Shown in pieces: positions 913-60,343 of a DNA stretch of 64,000 bases (position 1 is its first letter; each line of letters begins with the position of its first letter). Location of the stretch: the NCBI GenBank assembly GCA_963769935.1, contig CAVYNY010000009.1:128001-192000 (forward strand), given 5' to 3'. Below the pieces are notes generated by a model that did no database searches, was not told where the DNA came from, and worked only from the letters and a program-made list of their open reading frames with translations. The position numbers and the translations under genes were made by a program. The DNA comes from an uncultured delta proteobacterium (GTDB lineage: Bacteria; Desulfobacterota; Desulfobacteria; Desulfobacterales; JAFDCJ01).

Positions 913-1049
913 TAACCTTTAACCTTTATCTTTACCTTTATCCTTTAACCTTTATCCTTTATCCAACAGCATCTATCATCCAGAATCAACCATTCAACTA
1001 TGAACTATGAACTATGAGCTATGAGCTATGAACTATGAGCTATCAGCTC
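913..1049. repeat. Tandem heptamer arrays (CCTTTAW and ARCTATG)
   Basis: cctttaa-cctttat... and aactatg-aactatg-agctatg... read directly. Confidence 0.95.
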
Positions 1050-1940
1050 TCATACCGCCCGCTCCGGTTTGCCGAACAGGCCGTAAGGCTTTATCGACAG
1101 GACGATAACCAGCAAAATAAAGCCGTAGATATCCACAAAAGACGGGTGAATGAAGGCACTCCCCAGACTCTCTGCGATACCCAGTGAAAGACCGGCAACC
1201 AGAATACCCGGTATGGACCCCAGACCGGCGATAACAATTATTTCAAATCCACGAACCGTCGGAGCCGCGCCGCACAGCGGGTATACCAGAAAAATCGGGG
1301 CCAGCAGCGCACCGCCGGCGCCTGCCAAGGCGGTCCCCAGCCCGAAGGCCAGAGTATCGTATTTGAGCACATTGACCCCGGCGGTTTGAACGCCGGGCCG
1401 GTTTTGCGCAACTCCCTGAAAAGCTTTGCCGGCCCAGGTCTTTTTGATGAAATAGTAAAATGCCCCCAGCATGACTAGGGAGCCGATCAGCGCGATCAGG
1501 CGATTTCCGCTGATGGGCAGCGTCAGCAGCTGGGTCGGACCGGCGTAATCGGGCGGTGTATAAATATAGGGACCGCCGATAAGCACCGCCATGTTGCGCA
1601 GGAAGATCGCCAGGGAAATGGTAACAATTGTCGCATATTCCATTTTGGCTTCAATAATACCGACGAACATCGGCTTGATCAGTATCCGTTGGACCACGGC
1701 ACCGAAAATGAAAACAACAAAAGCCGCGATGACAATTCCGACAAACCAGAGATTCGGACCGAGGATGTAAGTCAGCAGCAAATATTGGACATAGGCCCCG
1801 ATCATGAAGAATTCGCCCATGGACCAGTTGATCACTTTCATGATACCGTAAATGAAATTGATCCCCATGGACATCAGGCAGTACAGGACCCCCATGATGA
1901 TCCCTGAAATTAAAAACTGGCTGAAGAGATGCAGGTCGAT
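1050..1940 (-). CDS. livH: Branched-chain amino acid ABC transporter permease (LivH family)
   Basis: LivH-type N-terminus (SQFLISGIIMGVLYCL..GINFIYG..INWSMGEF) and C-terminal KPYGLFG. Homology and the SD extend to an ATC at 1940; the first ATG is at 1895. Confidence 0.85.
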   Translation of the reverse strand: MDLHLFSQFLISGIIMGVLYCLMSMGINFIYGIMKVINWSMGEFFMIGAYVQYLLLTYILGPNLWFVGIVIAAFVVFIFGAVVQRILIKPMFVGIIEAKMEYATIVTISLAIFLRNMAVLIGGPYIYTPPDYAGPTQLLTLPISGNRLIALIGSLVMLGAFYYFIKKTWAGKAFQGVAQNRPGVQTAGVNVLKYDTLAFGLGTALAGAGGALLAPIFLVYPLCGAAPTVRGFEIIVIAGLGSIPGILVAGLSLGIAESLGSAFIHPSFVDIYGFILLVIVLSIKPYGLFGKPERAV

Positions 1941-1975
1941 GGCCCTATCCTCCTTTCACGGTTAAGTTTAGGCTT

Positions 1976-3544
1976 TCAACGTCTTATTCGATAGCCCGAC
2001 TTCTCAAGGTCCCAGCAATCCATAATATCCCTGGAAAGCTTATCTTTTGCAATTCGCTGGGTAGGCGTTTTTTCAAAATCTTCAATAAATGCTATGTAGC
2101 GCGGTATCTGGTAATAGGCCATCCGCGGCTCACACCACTTAATAAAATCAAGAGGGTCAAGCCTGACGCCGGACGCACATTTTATGAAAACCTTTAAATC
2201 CTGTTCACCGACTTCTGCCGCCACACCGACGACGGCGCTTTCCTGAATGTCCGGGTGCGCGTTGATGATATGCTCGACTTCCCAGGCCGATATGTTTTCG
2301 CCGCGGCGACGGAAACTGTCTTTCTTGCGTCCCAGGTAGTAATAATCGCCCTCAGCGTCGCAGCAGGCCAGATCGCCGGTGTAAAGCCAGCCGTCTCGCA
2401 GCTCGGCTCCGGTCCCCGCCGAATTCTCCAGATAGCCCTGCATGATCAGGCCGGGCTCTTGTTCCCGCACGCAGATTTCGCCGCTTTGACCGGCCTCGAC
2501 CGGCTGTCCGTTGTCATCGACAATCCGCAGCTCAAAATACGGGTAGGGCTTGCCGATTGATCCCACCTTACCCGTTCGGTTCAGAGTGGTAAAACAGGAG
2601 GCTTCGGTCATACCATAGACTTCGCGAATTTCGACCCCGAAACGCTGTTCAAAGGCCTTCCACGTGCCCTTGGTACAGCCTGCACCAAATGCGATCCGCA
2701 CGTTGTGATCCCTGTCATACGGACCGGGGGGCTGCTTCAGCAATATATCGAGAATACCGCCGAGATAATGCAGCTTGGTGACCTGATATTTTCTCATCTG
2801 CTCCCAAAACCGGGAGGCGCTGAAGCGCGGCACGATTGCCAGTTTAACGGGTTCCAGCAGGGCCAGCACGCACATCTGGGCACCACTGGTGTGGTAAACA
2901 GGCTCCCACAGTAAAAAGACGTCACCCGGACGAACATCGGCCGCCCGGCCGGCAGCAGCCGCGCAAGTTGTCAACATCTTTTCGGTCAAAGGGGCACCTT
3001 TGGGCGGCCCTGTCGTACCCGACGTAAAAAAAACAGCGCGAACTTCATCCATCGTTGCGGCCGCGCGCAGCGGTGCGCCGCTCCCTTCGGCAACCAAGGC
3101 AAAATCGTACCCATCGGCTGGTTCCGCCGGGGCTCCCGGGTTGCGAATGACCAGGGTATCGAACGTATTAGCTGCTGGAAGAGACTTCAAATGCGGCCAG
3201 AATTGTGCATCCGCAATTACAATGCGGGGTGCTGACTGCTTAAAAATAAACTCCAGACCTGCGCCGCGCAGGTTGGTATTGACCGGCACCCAAACAGCCC
3301 CCAGTTTTGCCAGCGCAAAAAACGTAAAAATGTGATCCGGGTGATTGGTGAAGATGACGGCCACCCGTTGACCCGCCGCAACACCGAGTTTCGCCAATCC
3401 ATTCGCCAGACTGTTTACACGGGATTCCAGAGTCCTGAATGTAATTTCGCCGTCGTCATGGATACCGAAGACATCGTCGGGCGTCTGCCGGGCGCGGAGC
3501 TCCAACAGCTCGGCTATGGTTTTTTCAAATGCCATTGGTACCAA
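1976..3544 (-). CDS. ATP-dependent acyl-CoA ligase, CaiC (crotonobetaine/carnitine-CoA ligase)-like
   Basis: AMP-binding FTSGTTGPPKG, YGMTE, GWLYTGDL, RRRGENIS and KTPTQRI motifs. Confidence 0.9.
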   Translation of the reverse strand: MVPMAFEKTIAELLELRARQTPDDVFGIHDDGEITFRTLESRVNSLANGLAKLGVAAGQRVAVIFTNHPDHIFTFFALAKLGAVWVPVNTNLRGAGLEFIFKQSAPRIVIADAQFWPHLKSLPAANTFDTLVIRNPGAPAEPADGYDFALVAEGSGAPLRAAATMDEVRAVFFTSGTTGPPKGAPLTEKMLTTCAAAAGRAADVRPGDVFLLWEPVYHTSGAQMCVLALLEPVKLAIVPRFSASRFWEQMRKYQVTKLHYLGGILDILLKQPPGPYDRDHNVRIAFGAGCTKGTWKAFEQRFGVEIREVYGMTEASCFTTLNRTGKVGSIGKPYPYFELRIVDDNGQPVEAGQSGEICVREQEPGLIMQGYLENSAGTGAELRDGWLYTGDLACCDAEGDYYYLGRKKDSFRRRGENISAWEVEHIINAHPDIQESAVVGVAAEVGEQDLKVFIKCASGVRLDPLDFIKWCEPRMAYYQIPRYIAFIEDFEKTPTQRIAKDKLSRDIMDCWDLEKSGYRIRR

Positions 3545-3548
3545 AGAA

Positions 3549-3596
3549 TATGGTTGATTAAGTTGATTGGGTTGATTAAGTTGATCACGTTGACTT
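3549..3596. repeat. 9-mer tandem array (GTTGATTAA/GTTGATTGG)
   Basis: Direct reading immediately upstream of the ligase start. Confidence 0.9.
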
Positions 3597-3710
3597 GAAT
3601 AAGGTCAGTTATACATAAGGACATAAATCATTATTACTCATTGGTCGATATGGGCTATAAGGGATTTCCTCTTCGATAAAACCGGCCGCTCCATCGTTAG
3701 CGGCGGCGCT

Positions 3711-3973
3711 GACACCTCATATGAAACTACATCTCACACAGAGCGCTCAGAGATCACAGAGGTCTGGGTTTACAGGCGCCTGCGGCGAAAGAAAAATGTT
3801 CTCTGCGGTCTCTGTGAGCTCTAACGGCTTGTCGGGTCGTAGCTCGAAGAGCGAAGCCTGAAAGTGGGCGTGATATTAAATCCAACTGTGTCCGATTTCC
3901 AAAAGTTTCTTTTATGATCAGACCGGCCGTTGTTTTGGCCGGCGGCGGCGCTGACACCTGAACACTGAAACCT
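3711..3973. repeat. MITE/REP-like element family A, copy 1
   Basis: 3904-3973 is the near-exact reverse complement of 30934-31002, and 3711-3729 is the reverse complement of 31153-31171. Confidence 0.9.
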
Positions 3974-3996
3974 ATATTCCTCCTGGCTCAATCAAC

Positions 3997-4779: not shown

Positions 4780-5076
4780 TTCGATGGAGTTCTCCTTTAG
4801 TTGCCGATTCGGATTGCCGGTCAGCGAGCATGATGATAATTAATAAGTATGATAGAAGTCAGTTGTATGTTGTCGGTTTTGCGTTAAGAAGAATTGGGAG
4901 CCTTATCTTCCGGCGCTCCTCTGAGAAAAATGCTGTTATAATGTGATCCGTTTTTAACGCTAAACAACAAGCCACACACAACAAACCACCTGAACCCTGA
5001 TCGAGCCTGAAGACTCGATCAGGGTGTTATTTATGCAGTTCTCTCAAAGGTGCGTCACTTGCCAGCTGGAAATCGA

Positions 5077-6303: not shown

Positions 6304-6352
6304 CAGTAATACCCTCCTTTCTTTTGATTAGTGAACTCAATCAACCCATCAA

Positions 6353-7102: not shown

Positions 7103-7187
7103 CGTTTCAGCTCCTATGTCAAAAACTCCAAAATAACCCCACAAAAAATTCCAAGCCAGTTGCATCAATTTTCAGACCCCAGCCAAA

Positions 7188-9786: not shown

Positions 9787-9815
9787 GCTAATTGGCAGTT
9801 ATTCGTTATTTGTTA

Positions 9816-11213
9816 TTATGAATCCATCATGATTGTTTTAATTCGAAACGGCCACCTTAACGGGCTGTGCAGCTTTTGCCAGGCCTCTTGGATCCTGATA
9901 ATCTGTTGTGAGCTGAGGGTGGATTCCCCGTATACCTCCCAATGCACCATCTCAATAATCAGCATAATATCAGTTTTTAATTTCGGGAATCGGCAAGCCA
10001 GGCGCGTGCCGTACTCCATGGGTGTTTCATCGGATGCCTGAGGTATTCCGCTGTAGCGGCCCCAGCGCAGCAATGCTGCGTAAAAATCAAGGGCGCTTCG
10101 TTTGGCACCGGTGCGCAGCATCCACTCATAGCAGGCAAGCAAAAACGCCTTCAGCCGGTGCCACCACCATAAAAGATCGACTTGTTCCCATTTTTCATCG
10201 GCACCGTAGCGCTGCCTGAATAGCCATCGAATCGTGTACCATAATGCCAGGCCGGCCACCACAATCCCCAGAGCCAGCAGCAGCGTGCCGCCTCCCCACA
10301 TCAGAACTTTTTGCATCAGCAGCATCCAGGCGCCGGGTTCGTTCCCTTGCGGGGTGCCGGCTGTGCCGGCCGAGGGAGACAAGCCCGGGGGCTGCTGACC
10401 GAATTTCGCATGCCCGAAAATAAACCTGATCACCGCAATCAATATCGGTGAAAACGGTGCGGCGGCACTTTTCATCAGGTCGTATCCGACCACCGAAGCG
10501 CTTCTAAGGTACGGCAGGAAGAATAGAAAAACCGCACCACCCAAAATTAAGGCCCCGACGGAAAAACCGGTGAATACGCCGACAGCGTGATAGCCTGATA
10601 AATAGTCTTTTTTATGACCATGGCCCTGATTGCGGGTCAGTCCAATTTCCGTCAAACTGAAAATAAAAAAGGGAAAAATCAGCCAGACCGTCATCGAATC
10701 ATGGAACTGGAGCCCCGCCTGGGTGTGTAAAATCAATTTAATCAGGAAGAGACTGAAAAATGCGGCCACCCCCCGGTCAAACCGTGTGCAGGCATAAAAG
10801 TAAGATTTTACCTGCAGCGCAAACCGGACCCCGATCCCCCAGAACATAACGGTATATGCCAAAACAAAAATAAGCAGAAACCACGCCAAATGATCCCGCG
10901 GCCGATTAAAAAAATCAGCGAACCAGGCCGGATTCCACAAGGCAGAAGAACGGTAGTAAAAGACATGCACAACCCACAGAACGGTGCCGGCCAGACCGAT
11001 CAGGTGCATACCGATAATCTGAATCACCCGCCGGCGGTGTCTGCGGAGAACAAGCGTCAGCAACGCCGCCAGGCAGAAAGTTCCAAGAGCCTCGGGCAAG
11101 GGATACAGCCGCTGGAAGAATGAAAAAAGCAGAAAGGACGCCCAGGCATAAAGCCAGGTCAGTTCCGCTCCGGCACCGGAGACAAACAAAAAAACGGCGG
11201 GATTTCTTTTCAA
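9816..11213 (-). CDS. Multi-pass membrane protein with C-terminal DUF4129-like domain
   Basis: About 10 hydrophobic segments; C-terminal FYAALLRWG..G..ETPMEY..RL..YGE; TTG start abutting the DUF58 stop. Confidence 0.75.
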   Translation of the reverse strand: MKRNPAVFLFVSGAGAELTWLYAWASFLLFSFFQRLYPLPEALGTFCLAALLTLVLRRHRRRVIQIIGMHLIGLAGTVLWVVHVFYYRSSALWNPAWFADFFNRPRDHLAWFLLIFVLAYTVMFWGIGVRFALQVKSYFYACTRFDRGVAAFFSLFLIKLILHTQAGLQFHDSMTVWLIFPFFIFSLTEIGLTRNQGHGHKKDYLSGYHAVGVFTGFSVGALILGGAVFLFFLPYLRSASVVGYDLMKSAAAPFSPILIAVIRFIFGHAKFGQQPPGLSPSAGTAGTPQGNEPGAWMLLMQKVLMWGGGTLLLALGIVVAGLALWYTIRWLFRQRYGADEKWEQVDLLWWWHRLKAFLLACYEWMLRTGAKRSALDFYAALLRWGRYSGIPQASDETPMEYGTRLACRFPKLKTDIMLIIEMVHWEVYGESTLSSQQIIRIQEAWQKLHSPLRWPFRIKTIMMDS

Positions 11214-11214
11214 T

Positions 11215-12411: not shown

Positions 12412-12419
12412 AATAAAGA

Positions 12420-12790
12420 GTTCATCGTTGATAGTTGATAGATGATCGTTGATAGTTGATAGTTCATAGTTCATAGCTGATAAAAGTGGCTGGAAAGCTT
12501 GAAAGGGAAGAAGAGAAGAAGGTGAGGATAAGAAGATCAGAAACTCAGAAACTCAGAAAAAAACAGGCATTGCTTCCCTTCTACCTTATAACTCAACAAA
12601 CTCAACAAACTGAAACCCTTTTTCCTTTCACCTTTAGCCTTTTACCTCTATCCCTTTTTCTATCAACTATGAGCTATGAACTATCAACTGGCGCGTTCGC
12701 GCCGCCTTCAACCTTTATCTGCTTCAGCCTTATTCAACTCATTAAACTCAACAAACTCAACAAACTCAACAAACTATCAAACTCTATCCG
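12420..12790. repeat. Composite intergenic tandem-repeat block (7-mers and 9-mers around a conserved core)
   Basis: gttgata/gttcata arrays, gaag-rich 9-mers, core GAAAAAAACAGGCATTGCTTCC, then aactcaaca, cctttag and tatcaac/tatgaac arrays. Confidence 0.92.
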
Positions 12791-25591: not shown

Positions 25592-25777
25592 GCCGAATCA
25601 TCATCATCCTTCAAGTAAAGAATCCTGACCCAGCTTCCTGTCCGTGGGCCTACAGCCCGGCTTCCGGCTCGTAGAGCCTACAGCTCGGAGAGAGGGAGGA
25701 CCAGGTTTTCAATGTTGGAATAGATTTAAGGGATTCGTACAGACGCCGAACAGCTGACAACAGGCGAAATCGCTCAA

Positions 25778-29988: not shown

Positions 29989-30930
29989 ATGTGGCAATAC
30001 ACTGTCCGACGAATATTGGCTATCATCCCCGTGGCGGGGGTGATAGCCATCTTTGTCTTTTTGCTGCTGCACCTGGCTCCGGGGGACCCGGCGGCAATTA
30101 TTGCGGGCGATACGGCCATGCCCGAGGATATTGCCCGCATCCGCGTCAAGCTGGGCCTCGATGACCCCATTTACGTCCAGTTTGTGCGTTGGATGGGCCA
30201 GCTGCTGCACGGCGACCTGGGCATTTCCATCTACTCCGATATGCCGGTGACCACCCTGATCGGCCAGCGCATGGAAGCAACGCTCTGCCTGGCATCGGCC
30301 AGCATTATCATTGCCGTCTTCCTGGCGGTTCCCATGGGCATCCTGGCGGCCTGGAAAGCCGGTACCTGGATTGATTATGTGGTCATGATATTTGCGGTTT
30401 TCGGCTTTTCGGTCCCGGTTTTTGTCATCGGCTACCTGCTGATCTTCGGATTTTCCGTCCACCTGCACTGGTTTCCGGTCCAGGGGTTTGTCAGCATCAG
30501 AGAAGGCGTGTTGCCGTTTCTGCGCACCATCACCCTGCCGAGCCTGGCGTTGGGGCTGATCTATGCCGCCCTGATTGCCCGCATCACCCGGGCCAGCGTA
30601 CTGGAAATTCTGACCCAGGATTATATCCGCACCGCCCAGTCCAAAGGCCTGAATACTTATGCGATCCTGATTCGGCACACGCTGCGCAACGCCGCCATTC
30701 CCATCGTCACGATTATCGGCATCGGCATCGCCCTGTTGATCGGCGGCGTGGTGGTCACGGAGAGCGTGTTCAACATTAACGGCATCGGCAGGCTGGTTGT
30801 GGATGCCATTCTCTCCCGGGATTACCCCGTGATTCAGGGAATCATTCTCATGTCATCGGGTGTATACTTGGTGATTAATCTGATTGTCGATATATCGTAC
30901 CGGTTTTTCGATCCGAGGATTGAGTACTAG
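29989..30930 (+). CDS. Peptide ABC transporter permease (DppB/OppB-like)
   Basis: APGDPA, GLDDP, QDYIRTA.SKGL and RDYPVIQG motifs. Confidence 0.93.
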   Translation: MWQYTVRRILAIIPVAGVIAIFVFLLLHLAPGDPAAIIAGDTAMPEDIARIRVKLGLDDPIYVQFVRWMGQLLHGDLGISIYSDMPVTTLIGQRMEATLCLASASIIIAVFLAVPMGILAAWKAGTWIDYVVMIFAVFGFSVPVFVIGYLLIFGFSVHLHWFPVQGFVSIREGVLPFLRTITLPSLALGLIYAALIARITRASVLEILTQDYIRTAQSKGLNTYAILIRHTLRNAAIPIVTIIGIGIALLIGGVVVTESVFNINGIGRLVVDAILSRDYPVIQGIILMSSGVYLVINLIVDISYRFFDPRIEY

Positions 30931-30933
30931 TTG

Positions 30934-31171
30934 AGGTTTCAGTGTTCAGGTGTCAACCCAGCCGCCGGCCAAAACAACGGCCGGTCTGATCGAAAAAGAA
31001 ACATAATAGTTCACCGCAGAGCCCGCCGCCTCTGGCCCATAGGGCCTACGCCCCGGTGGGAGAACGCCGAGAAAGAAAAGTTAAATTAATCTCCGCGCTC
31101 TCTGCGCTCTCAGCGGTGAGACACTTCGTAAAAATGGCATCGAATTTAAGAAAGTTTCATATGAGGTGTCA
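30934..31171. repeat. MITE/REP-like element family A, copy 2
   Basis: Termini match 3711-3973 in inverted orientation; internal CACCGCAGAG.../...CTCAGCGGTG inverted repeat. Confidence 0.9.
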
Positions 31172-31179
31172 GGCGGATA

Positions 31180-31545
31180 AAGGTTGTTAGTTTCTTGTGT
31201 TTATTGAGTTAAAATGTATAGAAGGTTAAAGGCCAAAGGAGAAAGGCTGGGAGGATGCGAGTTATGCGGCGCACGTCGCATGGCACATGGCTAAAAGTAT
31301 AGGGTATAAGGTATAAGGTGTAAAGTGTAAGGTTTGAGGTTTGAGGCAAAAAGAGAAAGGAAGAAATGCCGGTTCATTTCTTAGCTTCTTATTTTCTTAT
31401 CTTCTTCTCTTCTTTCCTTCTCAGCTTCTCAACTTCTTTCTTTGTCACCTTCTTTCCTTTCGAGCCTTCCAGCCACTTCGTCTCAGCCATGACCTATCGA
31501 CTATCAACTATGAACTATAAACTATGAACGATGAACTATCGACGG
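31180..31545. repeat. Composite intergenic tandem-repeat block
   Basis: G-rich 7/9-mers, core GGAAGAAATGCCGGTTCATTTC, then C/T-rich 9-mers and aactatg heptamers running into the dppC start. Confidence 0.9.
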
Positions 31546-32411: not shown

Positions 32412-32539
32412 GTTCAGAGGTTCTGGGGGTTCCGAGGTTCTGGGTTCAGGGTTAAGCCTAACCGCCAGTTTCCTGGCTTCCCAGCTTCCAAGCTTCTGTT
32501 GACCGGTAACGAATAACCAATAACTGATAACAAAACATA

Positions 32540-33575: not shown

Positions 33576-33885
33576 GAATGGATTCTATTATATTTTTTTA
33601 TTCAGACAGGATAAACAGGATTAGCAGGATTATTTTTTTGTCTTCATCAATTTCCGCAAGAAATTGATGAAACACAATCCACCTTCGGTGGAAAGCAGAA
33701 ATTCAGTATGGCCGGCATTCTTTCTTGAATTGTTTGCCCAAAAATTTTTGATACCTTATCGCTTAATAGCTACCTCGCAGAAGGCGATTGAGTATTCTTT
33801 GTTTCATCCGGAAACAAAGAATAAAAAAATTCAATAAATCCTGTAAATCCTGTCTAAAAAAAATAAAATATAAAGGAATCCATTC
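33576..33885. repeat. AT-rich MITE-like element with long terminal inverted repeats (family B)
   Basis: GAATGGATTC..TATTTTTTT..AGACAGGATAAACAGGATT versus AATCCTGTAAATCCTGTCT..AAAAAAATA..GAATCCATTC. Confidence 0.8.
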
Positions 33886-33941: not shown

Positions 33942-34958
33942 ATGCCTAACATTGCTACTCATACGTCCGACATGCCGGTCGAAGAAATACTGGCGGTCTC
34001 TAACCTCAAGAAGTATTTTCCGGTCCGGGGCGGTATCCTGATGCGCACGATCGGCCAAGTTTTGGCGGTGGACGGCGTGTCCTTTGATATTCGGCGGGGC
34101 GAAACCCTGGGCCTGGTCGGAGAGAGCGGCTGCGGCAAGACCACCGTCGGCAAAACGGTTTTGAGACTCATCGCACCCACCGCCGGGGAGATCCGCTTGA
34201 AATCACGAGATATCACCCATCTGGAGGGCAGCGAGCTGCGGTCTGTGCGGCGGGAAATGCAGATGATTTTTCAGGACCCGTATTCATCATTGAATCCGCG
34301 CATGTCGGCCCGCGACATTGTCGCGGAGCCGATGGAAAATTTCGGACTGGCAAGCGGCAGGGAAAAAAGAGCACGAGCGGCGACCTTGCTGGAGCGCGTC
34401 GGTTTTCGCGCCGGCCAGATGGCCAAGCGGCCGCATGAATTTTCCGGCGGGCAGCGCCAGCGCATCGGCATTGCCAGGGCCCTGGCGTTGAATCCGAGCC
34501 TGATTGTCGCCGACGAGCCGGTTTCCGCCCTGGACGTATCCATCCAGGCCCAGGTAATCAATCTTTTAGTGGACCTGCAAAACGAATTCAATCTGGCCTT
34601 CTTGTTTATCTCCCACGATCTGGCGGTGGTCAAACACATCAGCCACCGCATCGCCGTCATGTATCTGGGAAAGATTGTTGAACTCGCAGACAAAAAGGAC
34701 TTGTTTGCAGCGCCTCTTCACCCGTACACGGAAGCTCTGCTGGGGGCCATACCGATTCCCAACCCGCGGGCGGACCGCAAGGTAATCATACTGGAAGGAG
34801 ATATCCCCAGCCCGATTACCCCGCCGCCGGGCTGCCGTTTTCACACCCGCTGCCTCTATGTTTTTGACCGCTGCCGGATTGAAGAGCCGCCGTTAATTGA
34901 AGTGACGGCGCGACATTGGGCCGCGTGCCATTTGCGTCAGCCGCAGGAGAGTTCATAG
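33942..34958 (+). CDS. Peptide ABC transporter ATP-binding protein (DppF-like)
   Basis: [31 protein letters not shown] and GCRFHTRC motifs. Confidence 0.95.
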
Positions 34959-35140
34959 CTCATAGGTCATAGCTGATAGTTCGGAGTTCATAGTTTGTAG
35001 TTGATAGATCATAGTTGATGGGGGTGAAAAGGAGAAAGGCAAAAGGAAAAAGGTCAAAGGAAAAAGGAAAAAGGGTGTTAGCTTGTTGAGTTTATTGTGT
35101 TTGTTGAGTTGAAAAGGATAAAGGTGAAAGGTATAAAGAA
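34951..35140. repeat. G-rich tandem 7/9-mer arrays
   Basis: agttcat/agctcat, aaaggNN and gtttgttga arrays; the first array supplies the dppF stop. Confidence 0.9.
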
Positions 35141-38045: not shown

Positions 38046-38046
38046 G

Positions 38047-45157: not shown

Positions 45158-47341
45158 ATGACTGAAATCAGGCGATCTTATTGCGGTTTATGTCATCCCC
45201 GTTGCGGTCTCCTTTTGGAAATGGAAAACGGCCGGATTGTCAAAGTGAAAGGGGACCCGGATCATCCCATATCAAAGGGACGAATTTGTCAGAGAGGCAG
45301 TTTGATGGCTGATCATGTGGATCATCCGGATCGCATCAATTACCCGCTCAAGCGCAAGGGCGGCAAGGGAGCCGGACAATGGCAGCGCCTGACATGGCAT
45401 CAGGCCCTGGATGAAGTCGCTAACAAGCTAGGGGATCTTCGCGAACACTACGGCGCTGAGACCCTGGCTTTTACGCATGGCACCAAGCGAACCTATCACT
45501 GGGATGAACGCCGATTTTTCAACCTGTTCGGGTCACCCAATATCTGCGGAGCAAACAATATCTGCATGTGCCCGAGCCAGGCGGTAGAATTTGCAACTTA
45601 TGGCGGCTTCACGTGGGGTGATGCGATGCATACCAAATGCGTGGTTTTATGGGGGCATGCACCATCCAAGTCCAGCCCCATCGGCCTTTATCCCATGATC
45701 CTTCAAGCCCAGAAAAATGGGGCGCAACTTATCGTGGTCGATCCCCGCCGAATCCCGGAGGCGGAAAGAGCGGATATGTGGCTTCCCATACGGCCCGGGA
45801 CCGATGTGGCCTTGATGCTCGGATGGCTGCGGATTATCATCGAAGAAGACCTTTATGACACCGATTTTGTAGCAAACTGGACGATCGGATTTGAAGATCT
45901 CAAGACGGCCGCCGCCGAATATACGCCTCAAAAGGTTGCCGAGATTACCTGGCTGACACCCGAACAGGTGGTGAGTTCAGCCCGCTGCTACGCCACGACC
46001 AAACCGGCCATGATCACCTGGGGTTTCGGCCTGGACAAGCAGGGCGTCAACGCGACCCAGGCGGCAAGGGCCAGATGTTGTCTCAGAGCGGTGACCGGCA
46101 ATTTGGATATCCAGGGCGGGGAGCCGCTGGGCTGGAACGAACCTGTCGGCAGAATCATCGGCGACGAGGAAGTAGAATTCAACACTGCGCTTTCAAATGA
46201 GCAGCGGGCCAAGCAGTTGGGTGCCGATCAATATCCTTTCTTCGGTTTTCCGGGGTGGTCGCGCAACAGGGAAGCCAATCGCCGCCTGCCCATAGAATAC
46301 ATGCATCCACCCCATGCCGACATGACCTGTGTCGCCCATGCGCGAAGTGTGTTTGACGCCATGATTACCGCCAAACCCTATCCGGTTAAGGCGGCCATCT
46401 CGGTAGCCAGCAATCCGTTGCTTTCCCTGCCGAATGTGCGCCATACCTACGAGGCATTGAAGCAGTTGAAACTTTATGTTGTCGGTGAATTTTATCTCAC
46501 GCCCTCGGCCGCTCTGGCAGATTATGTTTTTCCGATATGTTCCACAGTCGAGACGACCGAATTGTGGCTGACCCCCATGTTCTGTGTGGCTTGTCCCCGC
46601 GGTGTTGAGCCGCTGTATGAACGGCGCAACACCTATGATTTCTGGCGCGGCCTGGCGCTGAGACTTGGGCAGCAAGATGACTGGCCATGGAAGACGGTGG
46701 ATGATGTGTGGGACTACCGGCTCGCTCCGGCAGAACTTACCTTCAAAAAGCTGCTTGAACAAAACGGCCTTTTCGGAAGGCCGCAATACAAGCGTTATGA
46801 AAAATTTGGTTTCGGTACACCGTCAGGTAAAGTTGAGCTTCGCTCCACAACCTTCGAGCAGCTGGGTTGCGAACCCTTGCCGGTATATCGTGAACCTTTT
46901 CACAGCCCCTTGGGTAATTCGAAACTAGCCGAATCCTTCCCCCTGGTTCTCATTTCCGGGAGCCGGTTTATGCCGATGTACCAATCCGAACAGCGCCAAA
47001 TTCAGGCGGCCAGAAAAAAAAGACCCGACCCGCTTCTGACGCTTCACCCGGATACGGCGGAAGCCCTTGGCCTGGCTGAAGGTGAATGGGTCAAGGTGGA
47101 ATCACCTCAGGGGAGCATTCGGATGCGTCTTCATCTTTCCGATATGGTTGACCGGCGGATGGCAGATGCAGATCATGGGTGGTGGTTTCCCGAACGTCGC
47201 GAGCAGGACCCCGAACTATTTGGAGTTTTTGAATCAAACGCCAATATTCTCTGCCCTGACGGATCGGAATTTTGCAGTCCGGAGATCGGAAGCTGGCCGC
47301 ATTCGGCGCTGCTGTGCCGGGTGAGCAAAGAAAGAAGCTGA
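45158..47341 (+). CDS. Mo/W-bisPGD oxidoreductase, acetylene hydratase-like clade
   Basis: CGLCHPRC..IC [4Fe-4S] motif, RRFFNLFGSPN, QLGADQYPF, PYPVKA, TPSGKVEL and HGWWFPE motifs; 727 aa, no Tat signal. Confidence 0.88.
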   Translation: MTEIRRSYCGLCHPRCGLLLEMENGRIVKVKGDPDHPISKGRICQRGSLMADHVDHPDRINYPLKRKGGKGAGQWQRLTWHQALDEVANKLGDLREHYGAETLAFTHGTKRTYHWDERRFFNLFGSPNICGANNICMCPSQAVEFATYGGFTWGDAMHTKCVVLWGHAPSKSSPIGLYPMILQAQKNGAQLIVVDPRRIPEAERADMWLPIRPGTDVALMLGWLRIIIEEDLYDTDFVANWTIGFEDLKTAAAEYTPQKVAEITWLTPEQVVSSARCYATTKPAMITWGFGLDKQGVNATQAARARCCLRAVTGNLDIQGGEPLGWNEPVGRIIGDEEVEFNTALSNEQRAKQLGADQYPFFGFPGWSRNREANRRLPIEYMHPPHADMTCVAHARSVFDAMITAKPYPVKAAISVASNPLLSLPNVRHTYEALKQLKLYVVGEFYLTPSAALADYVFPICSTVETTELWLTPMFCVACPRGVEPLYERRNTYDFWRGLALRLGQQDDWPWKTVDDVWDYRLAPAELTFKKLLEQNGLFGRPQYKRYEKFGFGTPSGKVELRSTTFEQLGCEPLPVYREPFHSPLGNSKLAESFPLVLISGSRFMPMYQSEQRQIQAARKKRPDPLLTLHPDTAEALGLAEGEWVKVESPQGSIRMRLHLSDMVDRRMADADHGWWFPERREQDPELFGVFESNANILCPDGSEFCSPEIGSWPHSALLCRVSKERS

Positions 47342-47520
47342 GAAGCTGGGAAGCTGGGAAGGTGAGAAGGTAAGAAGAGCAGAAGATCAGAGGATCAGAG
47401 GATAAGAAGGTGGGAGGTTGGGAAGTTGAGAAGGTGAGAGGTTGCGAACCTTTTTTCAACTCAATCAACCAATCAACCCAATCAACCCAATCAACCCAAT
47501 CAATTATGAACTACAAACCT
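47335..47520. repeat. 9-mer tandem arrays (G-rich, then C-rich)
   Basis: gaagctgg/gaaggtga arrays followed by caacccaat x3. Confidence 0.92.
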
Positions 47521-49529: not shown

Positions 49530-49675
49530 CTTGGCAGCGTTGGAGCAATGGAGTACTGGAGTTTTGGAGTGTTGGGGATCAAAAACAAATATGGGTCTGA
49601 TATTATATTTTTTATCGCTGCCAACCCTATAAAAACAGATCTCCTTCAACAAACCCAACACGCCAAGACTCCGGT
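49530..49675. repeat. TGGAG-type repeat element with inverted partner
   Basis: tggagcaa-tggagtac-tggagttt-tggagtgttggg versus cccaacacgccaagactcc. Confidence 0.7.
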
Positions 49676-51174: not shown

Positions 51175-54100
51175 ATGACAGATAAACAAGCTAAATTTCT
51201 ATTCGACAAGCGAGATCACGAGCTGATCCGGATCGTCAATAATGTGCAGCAGGTCGAAAGCAGCGCCCGATTTGCCCGCAAGTTCTATTTCCCCTATCTT
51301 CATCCCCATGGTATCAAGGAGATGACCGAAACCAAGGGCTTGCGCGCGGCCTACGCTGTAGCGCAACTGCTCAATTCGCTCGAGATCGGCGGTGTGGATG
51401 ACCGTATCAATGCCCTGCGCTCGCTGCGCCATGAAGTGATCGACATCGCCGAGGGTCCGCTGCCCAAAAACACGGCCCGGGTGCTGCTCCAGATCATGAA
51501 AGACCTGGTGCGCGCCCAAGGGGATTACCGCAGGCAGCTGGAGCTGGCCCATGATTTCCGCCGGACGGCCTCGGGCAAACCGCGCCTTGTCCGCCGGCAT
51601 TTGCGACGCTACCACCTGCTGGAAATGCCCGAGGAGTGGAATCAGATTGCCTTTGACGACCACGTTCATGATGCCAACACCAAGGGCCGCAAATCCTCCA
51701 CTCACCTGATAATGGACGCCTGGATCAAGGGGATCCGACGGCTGCGCGTTATTCACTACAACTATATCGAGCCGCGGTTTGCCGCGGAACTGCTGGAAGC
51801 GGCGAGAATATTGGAAATCGACATCCGGATCGGCATTGAGTTTTCCAGTCGATTTCGCGATAAGTACGTCCAGCTCATCTGGGTCCCCCGGGGGTTCACC
51901 GATGCCCAGTCGTTTTTGTGCTTTCTGGCCGAGCCGCCCGTCATGCAGCTCATGCAAGCCGGACGCAGCGCCTCCCGTTACCAGCAACAGTATGTCATGG
52001 ACCTGCTGCGAAAATTCAACGAGGTGCACCGACTGGAAATCAATCAGGTCTTCGGCGTCGATCTGCCCCCGATCAGGGAGGACGAGTTTCTGGCCTTTGT
52101 CGGCATCGGGCAGAAATCCAAACTGCATCTGTCGAAATTCATTCACAACCAATTGCTGCAGGTTCTACAGAAACGGGCCGCGGCGTTGCGAGACGAGTAT
52201 CTCCAGGCGGATGGCGACCGACGCCGGCAAATTTCCGAGTGGATCCAGGCCACGAATGCGCAGGACCTGGAATCCGTGGTGGATGCCTACCTGGAGCCGG
52301 AAAAAAACGCGGGGATCGGCAATCCGGACACCCCCGTTGATGCACCGGACTGTCCGGAGCTGCTGCTTCTGTCCCCCCTCGAATTGCTGAGCCGGCTGGC
52401 CCAGTTCCACGCGGGATACCGGGTAACCCTGAATTTGTCCAATCTGGTGGTTGAAGACGTACTGGAACTGATTTATGACTGCCAGGGCATGATCACGCGC
52501 CTGGAAATCTTCAATCTCAAGGATTATGCCGCCGGCAAGACCGCCCATGTTCCCGATATCAGCCGGCTGATGCAGGCCGTCAACGAAGGCAGTGCAATTC
52601 ATCTCAAACAGGTTACCCGCGACATCATTGACCGGCTGATCCGGTCCGGTTCTGCTGAAAAAAAAGTGCAGATCGATAAATTAACGACGATTTTGCATGA
52701 TATCGATACCCTCAAATCCTTTTACATTGGAAAACCACTGAAGGCCCGCATCGGCAGTGACTCCACCGGGCGATCGAGCCGCATGCACGGCATGGGACTG
52801 GCAATTAAAGAAACCCTGCCCAAAAGAGCCCAACGGTCGATCAAGCGCGACCGCATGCAGGATGTACGGGAGATCATTCCCATCCGGATGATCGCTTGCA
52901 AGCAACTGACATTCCTTCCCAAAAAAGGCTATATGCCGACCAGGCAGGTATTGTACTGGCTGGCGGCTCTGCTGCCGATCAACGGCTGGCTGGGTTTGAC
53001 GCGCCGGGAAGGCTGGGAGGTGGAACCGGCAGCCACCCGCATGGCGGACCCGGGCAACATTGTAACCCTCGGGGGCGTTCAAAAGAACATCGTCAACGGG
53101 CTTTATCTGAACCCGCCGGAAGCCGCCGACCGGCGCATTCGATTTCGCTGGCGCAATCTCAACTCCCATCTGCAGAATGCGCTGAAAGTGGTCATCGGTT
53201 TCATTCCGGCGTTTGCAACCTTCGCCCTGACCAAGGACTGGTGGGTGTTGGCCTATTGCGGGGCGTTTATCTGGTTCGGCATTACCGGCCTGCGCAATAT
53301 TCTGCAGTCGGTTCTGGGCGGCGGCGGTTTCAAGCGCTCGCCCCTGCTCAATTGGAACGACTACATCAGCTGGAGCCGCATCACGGACTCCTTGATGTAC
53401 ACCGGTTTCTCAGTGCCCCTGTTGGATTATGTCGTCAAAACTTTGATCCTCGACCGGGCCTTCGGCATCACCACGTCAACCAACCCGGTGCTGCTCTACA
53501 CGTTCATGGCGGTGGCCAACGGCATTTACCTCTCCAGCCACAACCTCATCAGGGGGCTATCCAAAGGTGCCGTCTATGGAAATTTCTTCCGCAGTATTTT
53601 GTCCATTCCCATTGCCGTCGGTTTGAACATGGTCATCGGAATAATTCTGGCGGCCGGGGGCGTCGCCGGCGTCGATCTGGAATTGCAGAAATGGGCGGCC
53701 ATCATTTCCAAAGCCGCCTCGGATATGGTTGCCGGCGTCATCGAGGGCCTGGCCGACCGCCACAAAAACATCCAGAACCGCCTGCGCGAATACACAGGCA
53801 AGTTTGCCCAGCTGTTCGACATCTATGCCCAGCTGGAGCTGCTCTACCCGGATGTGCGGACTTTCCGAATTCTGGATAGACCCGACAATCCGCAGCGCCG
53901 GACCAGCGCTGAGGCGCGCGACCTGGAAAAAATCATTATGATCCACGCCCTGGATCTGCTCTACTTCTGGTTGTACCAGCCGCGTTCGCGCACGGCACTG
54001 CGCCAGTTCCTGCACACCTTGACCGAAGACGAGCGCCACATCCTGGTCAGCAGTCAGTTTACGTTGCTGCGGCACCGCGAGATCAGCCAGCTTTTTATCG

Positions 54101-54312
54101 ACGGCATCCTGGGCGACAACTTCCCGCGTCCCCTGTCTTTTTATTTATCGCGCTACGAAGACTACCTGAAAGATGTCAAACGCCTGATTTTCGACGAGCA
54201 GCTGAACGATTCAGGCCCCTCCGCCCGGCCGGGTGTCCCCGTTGAACCTGCCGGTGCAGCGACTGCGGTCAAGGACTACTGCGAGGCATCCGTGCGCCGC
54301 ACGGCGAACTAA
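51175..54312 (+). CDS. Large uncharacterised protein with PHP-like phosphoesterase motifs and C-terminal membrane domain
   Basis: DDHVHD..TKG, IGIEF, LEIFN and IGSDS motifs; hydrophobic segments at aa ~670-850. Confidence 0.75.
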   Translation: MTDKQAKFLFDKRDHELIRIVNNVQQVESSARFARKFYFPYLHPHGIKEMTETKGLRAAYAVAQLLNSLEIGGVDDRINALRSLRHEVIDIAEGPLPKNTARVLLQIMKDLVRAQGDYRRQLELAHDFRRTASGKPRLVRRHLRRYHLLEMPEEWNQIAFDDHVHDANTKGRKSSTHLIMDAWIKGIRRLRVIHYNYIEPRFAAELLEAARILEIDIRIGIEFSSRFRDKYVQLIWVPRGFTDAQSFLCFLAEPPVMQLMQAGRSASRYQQQYVMDLLRKFNEVHRLEINQVFGVDLPPIREDEFLAFVGIGQKSKLHLSKFIHNQLLQVLQKRAAALRDEYLQADGDRRRQISEWIQATNAQDLESVVDAYLEPEKNAGIGNPDTPVDAPDCPELLLLSPLELLSRLAQFHAGYRVTLNLSNLVVEDVLELIYDCQGMITRLEIFNLKDYAAGKTAHVPDISRLMQAVNEGSAIHLKQVTRDIIDRLIRSGSAEKKVQIDKLTTILHDIDTLKSFYIGKPLKARIGSDSTGRSSRMHGMGLAIKETLPKRAQRSIKRDRMQDVREIIPIRMIACKQLTFLPKKGYMPTRQVLYWLAALLPINGWLGLTRREGWEVEPAATRMADPGNIVTLGGVQKNIVNGLYLNPPEAADRRIRFRWRNLNSHLQNALKVVIGFIPAFATFALTKDWWVLAYCGAFIWFGITGLRNILQSVLGGGGFKRSPLLNWNDYISWSRITDSLMYTGFSVPLLDYVVKTLILDRAFGITTSTNPVLLYTFMAVANGIYLSSHNLIRGLSKGAVYGNFFRSILSIPIAVGLNMVIGIILAAGGVAGVDLELQKWAAIISKAASDMVAGVIEGLADRHKNIQNRLREYTGKFAQLFDIYAQLELLYPDVRTFRILDRPDNPQRRTSAEARDLEKIIMIHALDLLYFWLYQPRSRTALRQFLHTLTEDERHILVSSQFTLLRHREISQLFIDGILGDNFPRPLSFYLSRYEDYLKDVKRLIFDEQLNDSGPSARPGVPVEPAGAATAVKDYCEASVRRTAN

Positions 54313-55240: not shown

Positions 55241-55431
55241 TTTGATTGCGCAAAATATTTTAGCATTTCCCTCAAGTAATCTGCAAAATTCCCGATAAAA
55301 AAGATGACTCCCTATACAACAAGTGAATTTATGATATAAGAATAAATCCCGACTTGGGTTGACAAGCCGCCAAGATTTGAATATAAACACACAAAACAGC
55401 GATTCTGGAGCCTGAAACAGATCCTCAATAT

Positions 55432-56748: not shown

Positions 56749-56897
56749 GAACAACAGAGAACAGAGGACAGAGGACAGATAAGAAGTTGAGAAGGTGAGA
56801 AGATCAGAAGGTAAGAAGTTGGGAAGTTGAGAAAAAAACCGGCATTTCTTCCTTTAGCCTTTCACCTTTAGCCTTTCACCTTTAGCCTTTCACCTTC
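56749..56897. repeat. Composite tandem-repeat block between convergent genes
   Basis: agaggac and gaagttga arrays, core GAAAAAAACCGGCATTTCTTCC, then cctttag/cctttca array. Confidence 0.92.
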
Positions 56898-57366
56898 ACC
56901 TTTCCCTACTTGCAAGACGCGGATCAAATCGGTAATTAATCGTGCTGCCGATGGTAATCTTTGCAAAATCCGGATGGTGCGGGCTGAGCAGATAGTTGTA
57001 TTCCTCAGGGATCACAACACTGGGCACTTTTAATACTGCAGATTTTCCTTGCTTAACCCAGCGATCCCCGATCGCTTTGATGGATGGTGCAGCAGGCCGG
57101 CTGTTCCAATCGTTTGGAAGAATGTCCAAAGGCAAGTCCATGATCAGGTTCGCCGGAATATGTACCGGGATTCTGACATATGCCTCCAAAAGCTTGGGAC
57201 CGGGAAGGTTTACCACCATTTCGATGGATGCTAAGGCAATGCTGCCGGCCGTGTATACCATGATGGTTCCCTTGCTGTTCCAGCGGCCGCCGCGAAGCCG
57301 CGCGCCTTCGCCGGAAAAAGCGTCGTCTTGGTATCTTGCCTGCACGATTCTCCACGCCGTTATCAT
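56896..57366 (-). CDS. RES domain toxin (NAD+ phosphorylase, MbcT/ParT-like)
   Basis: AWRI, FSGEGA..GGRWN, E, VPSV..PEEYNYLL.P.HPDF and FDPRL motifs. Confidence 0.93.
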   Translation of the reverse strand: MITAWRIVQARYQDDAFSGEGARLRGGRWNSKGTIMVYTAGSIALASIEMVVNLPGPKLLEAYVRIPVHIPANLIMDLPLDILPNDWNSRPAAPSIKAIGDRWVKQGKSAVLKVPSVVIPEEYNYLLSPHHPDFAKITIGSTINYRFDPRLASRER

Positions 57367-57767
57367 CAGGTGAAGATCCCATGTTCGATGCGGCCTAACA
57401 GGTCGTCCACTTCCTGAGCTCCAAGCTCAGTCTCGGCGAACTCCAGCGGTGGTATATCTCCCAGCGCCCATGCGGGTTCCTTGAGCCACTTGCGGCCCAT
57501 TTTCTTGTCTTCAAACACCTCCACTGCTCGGTCATACAGCCGCGCAATTCGGAAGATTCTTTCGGATTCTTCAAAGGTCATCCGACCGGATTTTTTTCGT
57601 CGCGCCAACGTGCTGATCGCAATGTTCAGCGTCTTGGCAAGCGACTTTTCGGACAATTCCAGGTTTTTGCATAGCCGGTCAAAAGCCTTCACGGACAATC
57701 CCTCCTTGATCTTGGCGATTAGCTTGGCACTGCTTTGCGGCTGAAGACCGATGGAGACCCCATACAT
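57366..57767 (-). CDS. Xre/MbcA/ParS-type antitoxin (DUF2384)
   Basis: STLARRK HTH; ESERIFRIARL..A.EVF and WL..P..ALG..P..ELGAQEV..LLGRIEHG motifs. Confidence 0.93.
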   Translation of the reverse strand: MYGVSIGLQPQSSAKLIAKIKEGLSVKAFDRLCKNLELSEKSLAKTLNIAISTLARRKKSGRMTFEESERIFRIARLYDRAVEVFEDKKMGRKWLKEPAWALGDIPPLEFAETELGAQEVDDLLGRIEHGIFT

Positions 57768-57892
57768 GACAATTGCCCTCCTGTTGCGTTTTTTATATGG
57801 CAATAATATAATTACCAAATGACAACTTGTAAAGCGAACAAAATAGTATCTGTTAATATATTGCTTCCGCTTTTACCCACCCGTTAATCGGC

Positions 57893-60100
57893 TCACTTCA
57901 CCGTAAAACTTACCACTGAGGTTTCCTGAAATTGCCCGGTTTGATCGAGCGCTATACGGGCCTTGACCGAATGGGCTCCCCGCTGCAACGGCCACCGGTA
58001 TTCGCCGGAAGGCGTGGTCACCGCCGGCTTGTCGTCGATATACCAGTCCACTTTTGTTTTTGTATTCAGGTTGGCCAGTCTGAAAACAAATGCCTCCTGA
58101 TCGTCGGCAATTCGGGGATCCATTGCCAATTGCAGCCCGGGGGTGGGATACTGCAGATACACCGGCAGTGCTTCGTAGGTGCGAACACCGGAAGATTCGG
58201 GTTCGGTTCCGGGAACGAACCACTCGCCGACGGCGGAGCAGCTGCCGTCGGCCGGCAATCCGCTGTCGCGGCAGATTTCCATTTTTATCAGCCGCGAGCT
58301 CAAATACAGCGGACGCGTGTCCTGGTGCCGATTGAGCTCCGCAAACACGGATCGCAATATCAGCGCCGGACCGTTGGATCCGGTGATACCGTCGGTGGCC
58401 TGATGGCTCAGGTTGCCGATCCAGACACCGGCCGTGAAGCGGGAATTATAACCGACGGCCCAGGCATCCCGGTAATCGCTGGATGTTCCGGTCTTAACGG
58501 CGGTTTGAACCGGAAACCGCAGCAGACTGCCGTTGCCGAATTCCAGCCGCCGGGCTTCCGGATCCGACAGGATGCTGCCGATCAGCGATGCGGTTTCGGA
58601 TGAAAAGATTCGGCGCGCGCTCTGCCGGGGCGGTTCGTCCATTAAATATTTCAGGGGTCGAAAAGTTCCCTGTCCGGCCAGCACCGTATAGGCCCGCACC
58701 AGTTCCAGCAGAGTAATTTCGCCGTTGCCCAGCGCCAGACCGTCGCCGTAAAAATCCGGGTGCTGCTGCAGGCTGCGGATTTCCAGTTCATGCAGACAAT
58801 CGAGAAACGCATCGACACCTGTAAACTGGATGGCACGCACCGCCGGTATGTTCAGTGAATTGCCGAGCGCCTCCCGGACCCTCAACGGCCCGTAATGCGT
58901 GCGGCTGTAGTTATGGTAGGAATGCAGACCCCGGCCGACGGCTTCGGCCAACGGTTGATCATCCACCAGCGTGGCCGCGGTCCAGCCTTTTTCCAGCGCC
59001 AGGGCATACAAAAGCGGTTTCAGGGTTGAGCCCGGCTGGCGGGGCGTGGTGACCGCATCAATCCAGCTGGCCGGAATATCCGCCAGATAGCTGCCGCTGT
59101 TTACCCACGCCAGCACCTCACTGCGCTGATGGTCTATGATCAATACCGCTCCGTTTTCGGCGCCCCGTTTTTTGATATCTTTCAGCCGATTGTCCAGGAT
59201 GGATTGAACGATGCGCTGCAGGCCGGAATCAAGCGTGCTGTGCAGGCGAACGGTATCCTGCAAATCCGCCGGCGGTAATATTTGAAAGAGGTGGTGAACG
59301 AAGTGATCGGCCTGCACGGGAATATCGCCGGTTCTAATCTCCAGCGCATCGGTGCTGATCATCGCGTAGCGTTCTGCATCGATGATCCCGTCCTGCAGCA
59401 GACGATCCGCAAGTCCGGCAATCGAACGAGCCAGGTCATCCGGCTTGCTGCGCACATCCAGGCGGGCCGGCGCCCGGACCATCACCACCAGGGCCAGCAT
59501 TTCCTTGGTGCTCAGCGTGTCCGGATCGCGATCAAAAAAATAGCGGGCCGCCTGCACCACACCCCTCCGCCGGGCGGTATATGGCACCTGATTGAGGTAA
59601 AACTCCAGAATTTCGCTTTTAGAAAAAGATTTTTCAAGCCCGGCGGCCTCGATACCTTCCAGCCAGCGCGACCAGAGGGTGCGCGGCCGCGGATGCCACA
59701 TGCGAACCACCTGCTCGCTGATAGTGCTTGCGCCCCTCACCGATCGCAGCGCTTTTATATTTTGCCAGAGCGCATGCAGGCGTGCCGGCCAGTCGACGCC
59801 GCCATGCTCAAAGAACCGCTGATCCTCGGACGCCACGAACGCCTGCCGCAGAAAATCGGGAATATCGTGCAACGGCACAAAGTCATGGATGTTCCAACGG
59901 TTCTGGTAGGTGACCGTCAGCGGAACATAATTGCGATCGACAATCTGAACTTTTCGCAGATGGGTAGAACCCAGGGCCAGTGAATCCGGCAGCGGCCGAA
60001 GATCGGCCCGGGTTTTCCAAAACAAGCCCCCTGCAATCAATACCGTCGACACCAATAAAGCTGCGGCCGCTTTTCTGGTTATGGCGTGTTTTCTATCCAT
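57893..60100 (-). CDS. pbpC: Penicillin-binding protein 1C
   Basis: Transglycosylase EDQRFFEHGG and GASTISEQ motifs; transpeptidase STLK, SLN and KTGT motifs; downstream of A2M. Confidence 0.92.
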   Translation of the reverse strand: MDRKHAITRKAAAALLVSTVLIAGGLFWKTRADLRPLPDSLALGSTHLRKVQIVDRNYVPLTVTYQNRWNIHDFVPLHDIPDFLRQAFVASEDQRFFEHGGVDWPARLHALWQNIKALRSVRGASTISEQVVRMWHPRPRTLWSRWLEGIEAAGLEKSFSKSEILEFYLNQVPYTARRRGVVQAARYFFDRDPDTLSTKEMLALVVMVRAPARLDVRSKPDDLARSIAGLADRLLQDGIIDAERYAMISTDALEIRTGDIPVQADHFVHHLFQILPPADLQDTVRLHSTLDSGLQRIVQSILDNRLKDIKKRGAENGAVLIIDHQRSEVLAWVNSGSYLADIPASWIDAVTTPRQPGSTLKPLLYALALEKGWTAATLVDDQPLAEAVGRGLHSYHNYSRTHYGPLRVREALGNSLNIPAVRAIQFTGVDAFLDCLHELEIRSLQQHPDFYGDGLALGNGEITLLELVRAYTVLAGQGTFRPLKYLMDEPPRQSARRIFSSETASLIGSILSDPEARRLEFGNGSLLRFPVQTAVKTGTSSDYRDAWAVGYNSRFTAGVWIGNLSHQATDGITGSNGPALILRSVFAELNRHQDTRPLYLSSRLIKMEICRDSGLPADGSCSAVGEWFVPGTEPESSGVRTYEALPVYLQYPTPGLQLAMDPRIADDQEAFVFRLANLNTKTKVDWYIDDKPAVTTPSGEYRWPLQRGAHSVKARIALDQTGQFQETSVVSFTVK

Positions 60101-60104
60101 GCTT

Positions 60105-60343
60105 GTTTTGTTAATTGAGTTTGTTGCGTTTGTTGAGTTTGTTGTGTCGATTGAGTTGATGGAGTTGATTGGAACTGCCAGGTTTTTTAACCAACTTCTC
60201 AAACAAGCCTCATTACTTAATCGACGATCGAGCTATCGCAGCCTTTTATCTAGCCTTTGGCGCTTCACTTTGCGCCATTGACACCTGAACCTAACTGATA
60301 ACCTATAACCGTTCTTCTCTTCTTATTTCATCTTCTTCTCTTC
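60105..60343. repeat. Tandem 9-mer and C/T-rich arrays between A2M and pbpC
   Basis: gtttgttga array and ttcttctct array. Confidence 0.85.

Follow-up and report, generated by a model that had tools for sequence, protein, structure and literature searches.

Many bacteria have an unexplained excess of heptamer repeats, and proteins of the four-helix-bundle family PF05635 are widespread and have no assigned function. Here we analyzed the repeat arrays in a 64-kb stretch of an uncultured delta proteobacterium (the window, positions 128,001 to 192,000 of contig CAVYNY010000009.1, our contig C9), which belongs to an 8.0-Mb, 41-contig assembly where PF05635 genes lie between arrays of the same kind. 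Among described systems, the GGGAATC heptamers of Xanthomonas and GGGGAYT heptamers of Nostoc come with a published placement rule and convergent pairs (Rehm et al. 2015, PMC4692102), and the present arrays resemble them in that the sense strand follows stops and the antisense strand precedes starts, relative to the nearest 5' open reading frame (ORF) whatever its direction, and also in their convergent inverted pairs, their length of about four units, and their lack of replichore preference. The polarity rule alone is thus already published and is not new. What differs is that the main text of that paper deals with one family per genome, read as G-quadruplexes, and does not contain the term 'four helix', while about 25 families of 7 to 9 bases were found here, tied to cargo genes; the consensus of the main families has short G runs at most, and G-tract units capable of forming quadruplexes were not found in them.

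Partial likenesses were also observed to several other systems. The TAACTGA heptamers of Beggiatoaceae likewise show the C-rich strand before starts and overlap with stop codons, but they are direct repeats of one family, and 'four helix' is again absent from the main text (PMC4679880). The Gmet_I/H elements of Geobacter metallireducens are tandem 7/8-mers whose pairs lie on opposite strands with varying spacing and have insertion sequences landing nearby, as here, although they were read as global regulator sites and the main-text passages mention no link to cargo (the supplements could hold neighbouring-gene data; PMC2700814). In Coxiella, according to the main text, the 23S rRNA intervening sequence (IVS) carries the same protein family (S23p/PF05635) between inverted ends with tandem heptamers; the cassettes described here, unlike that rRNA element, stand in operon spacers, accompany more than 1,000 gene-less arm sets, and hold genes under purifying selection (PMC4990558). 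As in the REPIN-RAYT system, as described in the portion of the source available (10.1101/2021.07.10.451892), extragenic inverted doublets occur in hundreds of copies, and a conserved single-copy gene has its cognate repeat on its flanks and often stays at the same slot; in contrast to its palindromic REPs of about 14 bp and HUH transposase, the units here are tandem degenerate 7-9-mers, the gene is PF05635, and slots swap cassettes between species. By analogy, the arms would work like REPINs around a non-transposase gene, without being members of the REPIN family. Lastly, one arm family and its gene sit inside an element like the IS91 family (Pfam PF14319, PF04986) in relatives, whereas the window arms and the cassettes of this genome lack such a transposase and, a few exceptions aside, such ends.

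Genome-wide occurrence and fixed handedness of the arms

Arrays were detected by Tandem Repeats Finder (TRF) and by direct reading of the letters. Every array that a first-pass annotation of the window had placed at named gene borders was found with the composition claimed, and the gene labels were borne out by family scans. The array after dppB is present as well, but the stop is at 30930 and not 31180; a short arm begins immediately there, and position 31180 lies beyond a separate element of about 216 bp inserted in this arm. The window yielded 26 TRF rows of period 7-9 with scores of at least 36, in comparison to 0 to 3 in 30 locally shuffled copies. Genome-wide, the numbers of rows with periods 7, 8, and 9 were 581, 328, and 248, respectively, in comparison to 1 and 5 for periods 5 and 6. 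After removal of overlaps, 1,463 arrays of period 7-9 remained, 1,359 of them intergenic, and arms occupied about a quarter of the scored spacers in this genome (1,188 of 4,400). The arrays are a genuine genome-wide feature, above chance.

The first-pass annotation had proposed that arrays are G-rich after stop codons and C-rich before start codons, and this held across the genome: with gene borders taken from our own ORF model and each array read in the sense direction of its nearest gene, 522 were G-rich and 123 C-rich after stops, in comparison to 73 and 262 before starts. The label 'G-rich' is an approximate majority, as in some families it is C that prevails on the outward strand (outward versus opposite, 31 vs 3 for AAATCAC, 15 vs 1 for AAATTCC, and 48 vs 9 for AAAATGCCT). 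On the plus strand the left array was mostly G-rich and the right mostly C-rich in tandem, convergent, and divergent spacers alike, and the rule was identical across all four gene arrangements; transcription direction is therefore not the cause, and the link to transcription that had been suggested for this strand-symmetric rule does not stand. Arm-free spacers showed a weak and mixed skew only. Replichore skew, which had been named among the observations that could overturn the rule, did not account for it either, since the rule was obeyed beside 394 of 511 putative leading-strand and 220 of 271 lagging-strand genes, with strands inferred from local skew in the 41-contig assembly, and a mild trend (220:170 and 318:349) vanished once gene orientation was held.

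Clustering gave about 25 families with units of 7, 8, or 9 bases, most of which lack G-tracts, and in each of the 16 largest one fixed strand reads away from the nearest gene, at stops and starts. This fixed handedness relative to neighbouring genes, whatever their transcription direction, makes an arm beside any host gene point away from it, so that G-rich arms follow stops and C-rich arms precede starts on either strand. With '>' and '<' for the two directions, the 1,123 arm-bearing spacers comprised 427 of the inward-facing type '> <', 364 with '>' only, 315 with '<' only, 5 of the type '< >', and 12 more complex. The two arms had a family in common in 230 of the 427 doublets, in comparison to a mean of 42 in shuffles, and neighbours of the same family less than 300 bp apart faced inward in 206 cases and outward in 2. 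The G-rich run before the sulfatase, once listed as an exception to the rule, does exist; it belongs merely to a spacer with outward arms only, and single direction is a common state (679 of 1,123). A fixed order of families within composite arms was rejected, with 3 of 15 family pairs significant and no general order. Of the 46 occurrences of the motif GAGCGAAGCG in the genome, 24 are no more than 150 bp from an arm, where the motif belongs to the non-repeat core in several heptamer families.

PF05635 genes between cognate arms

The first-pass annotation had suggested a cassette-like system whose gene lies outside the window, and such genes were found in arm pairs elsewhere in the genome. Six of the 7 PF05635 four-helix-bundle genes are enclosed by inward-facing arms, with a different repeat family at each gene, and most of these cassettes begin right at the stop of a host gene; all 7 genes adjoin protein genes or a tRNA, and none lies within 23S rRNA. 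The family was found in 37 of 41 related genomes. We compared 86 distinct full-length loci (97 hits minus 5 duplicate copies and 6 short ones), those in relatives being drawn from 90 of 222 matches. Among the 80 loci with both flanks, the flanks were inverted-like at 68, with 57 above the 95th percentile of mismatched flanks, and the upstream flank was G-rich at 77. Shallow clades of the protein tree carry matching repeat units; the tree came from a quick search over 103 columns with many open forks and was used for shallow clades only. Protein pairs at least 70% identical shared arms in 33 of 46 cases with a common host neighbour and in 20 of 31 cases without one detected (flanks short), in comparison to 0.1% of 3,491 pairs less than 50% identical. 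The dN/dS ratio was 0.04 to 0.11 in 19 of 35 pairs, those with measurable (unsaturated) dS, pointing to purifying selection. The closest solved structures are the five-chain entries 2RLD and 2GSC, and the related Avd pentamer is described, in the part of the source covered, as an RNA-binding barrel with a positive charge (10.1101/2023.10.23.563531).

It had also been proposed to look by synteny for small genes that come and go inside the arrays, and full, truncated, gene-less, and empty states were indeed found at orthologous slots. At the gltX-tRNA slot (26 loci, 3 uninformative), 3 full cassettes of three different clades and units and 1 truncated gene were found, along with about ten loci with gene-less arms (by eye) and five without arms. 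The hutF slot held full cassettes at 5 of 17 loci, 1 half-deleted, with 11 loci lacking the gene, and a dppB slot in relatives held a full cassette in 2 of 8. At the slot between A2M (alpha-2-macroglobulin) and pbpC, handedness was kept and families differed across the 12 genomes shown, with arms often supplying the stop codon and no gene present. The three closest orthologues of the moxR slot have other families, while in the majority of distant homologues the genes abut, and the AGGTGTC arm at the dppB stop recurs as a simple doublet in the one relative having this operon. A gene remnant of 20 codons inside one doublet fits the same series of decay. Gain, exchange, and erosion of arms thus all take place, and internal deletion can give rise to gene-less doublets.

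For one family a route of spread was shown in relatives, in the form of a multicopy IS91-like element with a Zn-finger, a Y2 HUH transposase, and fixed ends that presumably resemble IS91 ends. One genome (G007, loci L041-L046) contains six copies, 99.4-99.9% alike and recently multiplied, of an element with GGAATAAT-type 8-mer arms enclosing a four-helix gene and the transposase, both genes being interrupted by a small hairpin element. The four-helix gene stands directly upstream of the transposase in 6 of 16 related loci (16 of 28 matches; L271, L273, L274, L277, L283, and L290), two of them with full-length transposases.

On balance we favour the reading that the arrays form the left and right arms, facing inward, of fixed-handed doublets between genes, which are probably gene-less remains and copies of PF05635 cassettes; for the narrower statement that the arms originate from cassettes our confidence is good. 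A cassette would consist of a four-helix-bundle (23S-rRNA-IVS/Avd-like) gene between inverted arms of its own repeat family, and the pentameric protein may bind its cognate degenerate repeat on single-stranded nucleic acid, keeping invariant unit positions. Doublets would spread at the DNA level in a REPIN-like manner, and a rolling-circle (HUH) enzyme acting in trans is a tentative candidate, on the doubtful side, for a step of this spread. Recombination between arms, alongside the HUH step, could shuffle units and mix families; internal deletion could later remove the gene or one arm, and selection would stop arms at stop codons and ribosome-binding sites. If the arms are cis-sites of cassettes whose gene matches the repeat, both the repeats and the protein family become testable by one binding assay. 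A bolder version, which we regard as rather unlikely, holds that each four-helix-bundle pentamer specifically reads a 7-9-base code of its own, within a replicator system of a kind not yet described that writes or shuffles arms unit by unit and seeds more than 1,000 landing pads per genome at gene borders, as the common source of bacterial heptamer repeats.

A number of observations weigh against the cassette origin. About 1,100 spacers have arms, and the genome has only 7 PF05635 genes and 1 remnant, so most doublets are not directly traceable to a gene. The seventh gene is truncated and has arms in the same direction, and neither the window nor any of 18 slot loci from relatives contains a PF05635 gene. 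Unmatched arms make up 197 of the 427 doublets. In a strict three-unit test, a family of this genome was found on both arms at 21 of 86 gene loci, 11 of 26 families were covered, and two families were reversed at gene loci. The gene of the GGATGCT clade occurs in 6 of 23 genomes, all with at least 45 repeat matches, and 5 of the 17 genomes without it (assemblies 77-97% complete) nevertheless have 50 to 333 matches, which rules out that the cognate gene is required for repeat abundance. Arms were found near 0 of 2 Y2 and 1 of 11 Y1 transposase hits in this genome, so the IS91-like route is demonstrated for one family only; IS91-like end motifs are rare (4 ori-like motifs genome-wide), and no general mobiliser of arms was found. 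The link to GxxExxY (PD-(D/E)XK-type) genes is mixed, the arms being inverted at 8 and direct at 10 of 23 loci; these genes (L237-L265) are flanked by 8/9-mer arms of the CACAGAG, CACGAAA, and ACAGGAT kinds. As for other cargo, 72 wide '> <' gaps hold mostly ordinary host genes, with no second enriched family by eye. The literature covered, to which subscription papers and bioRxiv supplements did not belong, contained no gene-arm link for PF05635 outside the rRNA case.

Arms of the window and competing explanations

The arms of the window, together with the elements that interrupt them, are as follows.

1..912, minus strand: internal fragment of a group II intron, 90% identical to two other genome copies, cut exactly at the arm array
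916..964, minus strand: AAAGGTT-family heptamer arm, away from the livH stop
996..1048, minus strand: heptamer arm of the GATAGYT/CATAGCT family, which begins at the stop of livH (1050)
3553..3593, plus strand: 9-mer arm of the TTGATTAAG/ATTGAGTTT family, away from the start of the acyl-CoA ligase (CaiC-like)
9798..9817, minus strand: short heptamer arm, at the 9816 ORF stop
12419..12521, plus strand: left composite arm of the moxR-DUF58 doublet, GATAGTT 7-mer, then AGAAG 8-mer
12537..12784, minus strand: right composite arm of the same doublet, 8-mer, 9-mer, and AAAGG and GATAGYT 7-mers, starting behind the moxR stop
30931..30956, plus strand: AGGTGTC-family heptamer arm at the dppB stop
30957..31165, plus strand: multicopy secondary element that has 9-mer arms inside it and interrupts the AGGTGTC arm
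31166..31346, plus strand: further outward arms of AGGTGTC, AAAGG, ATAAGGT, and GAGGTTT units
31378..31540, minus strand: inward arms (AGAAG 8-mer, GATAGTT 7-mer) running into the dppC start
32412..32496, no single strand: doublet between dppC and dppD, one 8-mer arm at the stop of dppC and a second of opposite direction
33606..33853, no single strand: dppD-dppF inverted doublet of ACAGGAT 9-mers, of the kind found beside GxxExxY genes
34950..35140, plus strand: outward arms only (GATAGYT, AAAAGG, and TTGAGTT units), beginning at the dppF stop and reaching the sulfatase start; the array named after dppF covers 34950-35074
47333..47448, plus strand: AGAAG 8-mer outward arm overlapping the molybdopterin oxidoreductase stop
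47456..47503, minus strand: 9-mer arm away from the AOR start
49540..49575, plus strand: GGAGTAAT 8-mer arm after the AOR stop
56753..56833, plus strand: ACAGAGG 7-mer and AGAAG 8-mer arms after the M23 stop, in a convergent spacer
56851..56904, minus strand: AAAGG 7-mer arm overlapping the RES stop
60103..60169, plus strand: 9-mer arm away from the pbpC start
60312..60345, minus strand: AGAAG-type arm at the A2M stop

Besides an origin from cassettes, the arms might have been selected as stems of operon mRNA that RNase III cuts, as in the rRNA intervening sequence, and that tune processing or stability. This would agree with the Coxiella 23S IVS, where the main text reports the same gene, terminal inverted repeats, GACAGAT heptamers, and RNase III excision (PMC4990558). 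The same account would suit the crowding of arms at stop codons (peak at 0-5 nt, with 104 of 296 abutting arms covering the stop), their lower frequency in divergent than in tandem spacers (115 of 685 in comparison to 908 of 3,145), and the excess of stop-side-only over start-side-only spacers (296 and 222). However, in 164 matched pairs from tandem spacers the sense-strand duplex was the more stable one in 84 and the antisense-strand duplex in 74, with 111 G.T and 117 A.C mismatches. Long mRNA hairpins as a selected function, one of the possibilities that the first-pass annotation had raised, thus receive no support from a sense bias, and since there is none the mRNA-signal reading is weak. 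Folding of 7 window spacers showed only moxR-DUF58 to be significantly better than shuffles, and equally so on both strands (z -4.6 sense, -4.5 antisense); arms in one direction only, as well as the turnover of families at one slot, also speak against RNA stems, which we consider improbable. Still less probable is that selection put the arms at gene borders as sites where chromosome or regulatory proteins of the host bind, or where G-quadruplexes form. Sites of this kind were proposed, in the main texts, for the Geobacter paired 7/8-mers (PMC2700814) and the GGGAATC repeats (PMC4692102), and a degenerate consensus does resemble a binding motif, but most of the 25 or so families lack G-tracts, the family at a slot changes or is absent between sister species, and the enclosure of PF05635 genes would be left unexplained.

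The variation among units bears on how the arrays were built. In 566 arrays of 11 families, defined by our own degenerate patterns, only 24 were pure. In 9 families, adjacent units resembled each other no more than units picked at random from the family pool; in the other 2, identical neighbours were in excess (0.17 in comparison to 0.07, and 0.23 in comparison to 0.12). The first-pass annotation had dismissed random slippage, and rightly in that local slippage does not build these mosaic arrays; processes that could are templated addition, recombination of units between loci, and drift constrained by a binding protein. That the arrays are common slippage microsatellites on which reading frames and ribosome-binding sites act as a filter is very improbable: the excess in two families and the shaping of placement by stop codons within repeats, as reported in the main text for Beggiatoaceae (PMC4679880), would fit, whereas the '> <' handedness, which is kept in families without a stop codon on either strand, and the mosaic units largely refute it, and periods 5 and 6 are nearly absent. 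A telomerase-like templated system that adds units to DNA ends, two healed ends then being joined into the '> <' pattern, would explain the fixed strand away from genes, the units that look drawn from a small pool and not copied from the neighbour, the arms ending exactly inside the group II intron on both sides, and the many doublets with unmatched arms. Against this, over half of the doublets have matched arms with common non-repeat cores, and the 10 RVT_1 hits in the genome are all group II introns (5 loci with Rfam matches) or a 4-copy intron-type reverse transcriptase (RT) element; no repeat-adding RT was found among them and no RT near four-helix-bundle genes or arms in this genome, and we rate templated addition as a poor prospect. 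The four near-identical intron-type RT elements (L004-L007, on contigs C11, C13, and C17 of genome G000) have no Rfam match at gathering score, and two of them stand directly upstream of a Y1 transposase-like gene.

Elements landing in arms and other features of the window

The proposal that arrays serve as landing sites was supported by the element of about 216 bp at 30957-31165, which has 28 near-full copies, 74-98% alike, and ends in GTTTCATAYRAG, an end found 92 times in the genome. The AGGTGTC heptamer stands to the left of 21 copies, to the right of 15, and on both sides of 14. The group II intron fragment at 1-912 is also bounded by arms at its other end, just upstream of the window, and its other two copies (G000:C9:115520-117470 and G000:C14:146400-148391) are likewise in arm-bearing spacers. 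By replacing gene ends and attracting other elements, the arms of this genome shape its operon borders.

An Rfam search of the window gave no match, and a 1,045-aa ORF at 51175-54312 had no Pfam or NCBIfam match at E 1e-8. A RES-Xre toxin-antitoxin pair at 56896-57767 lies between the M23 peptidase and pbpC, and an arm overlaps its stop. A very small GC-rich hairpin element of the GGCCTACGCCCCGG type is present at 25629-25688 and 31030-31060, and it recurs inside other elements and genes in the genus.

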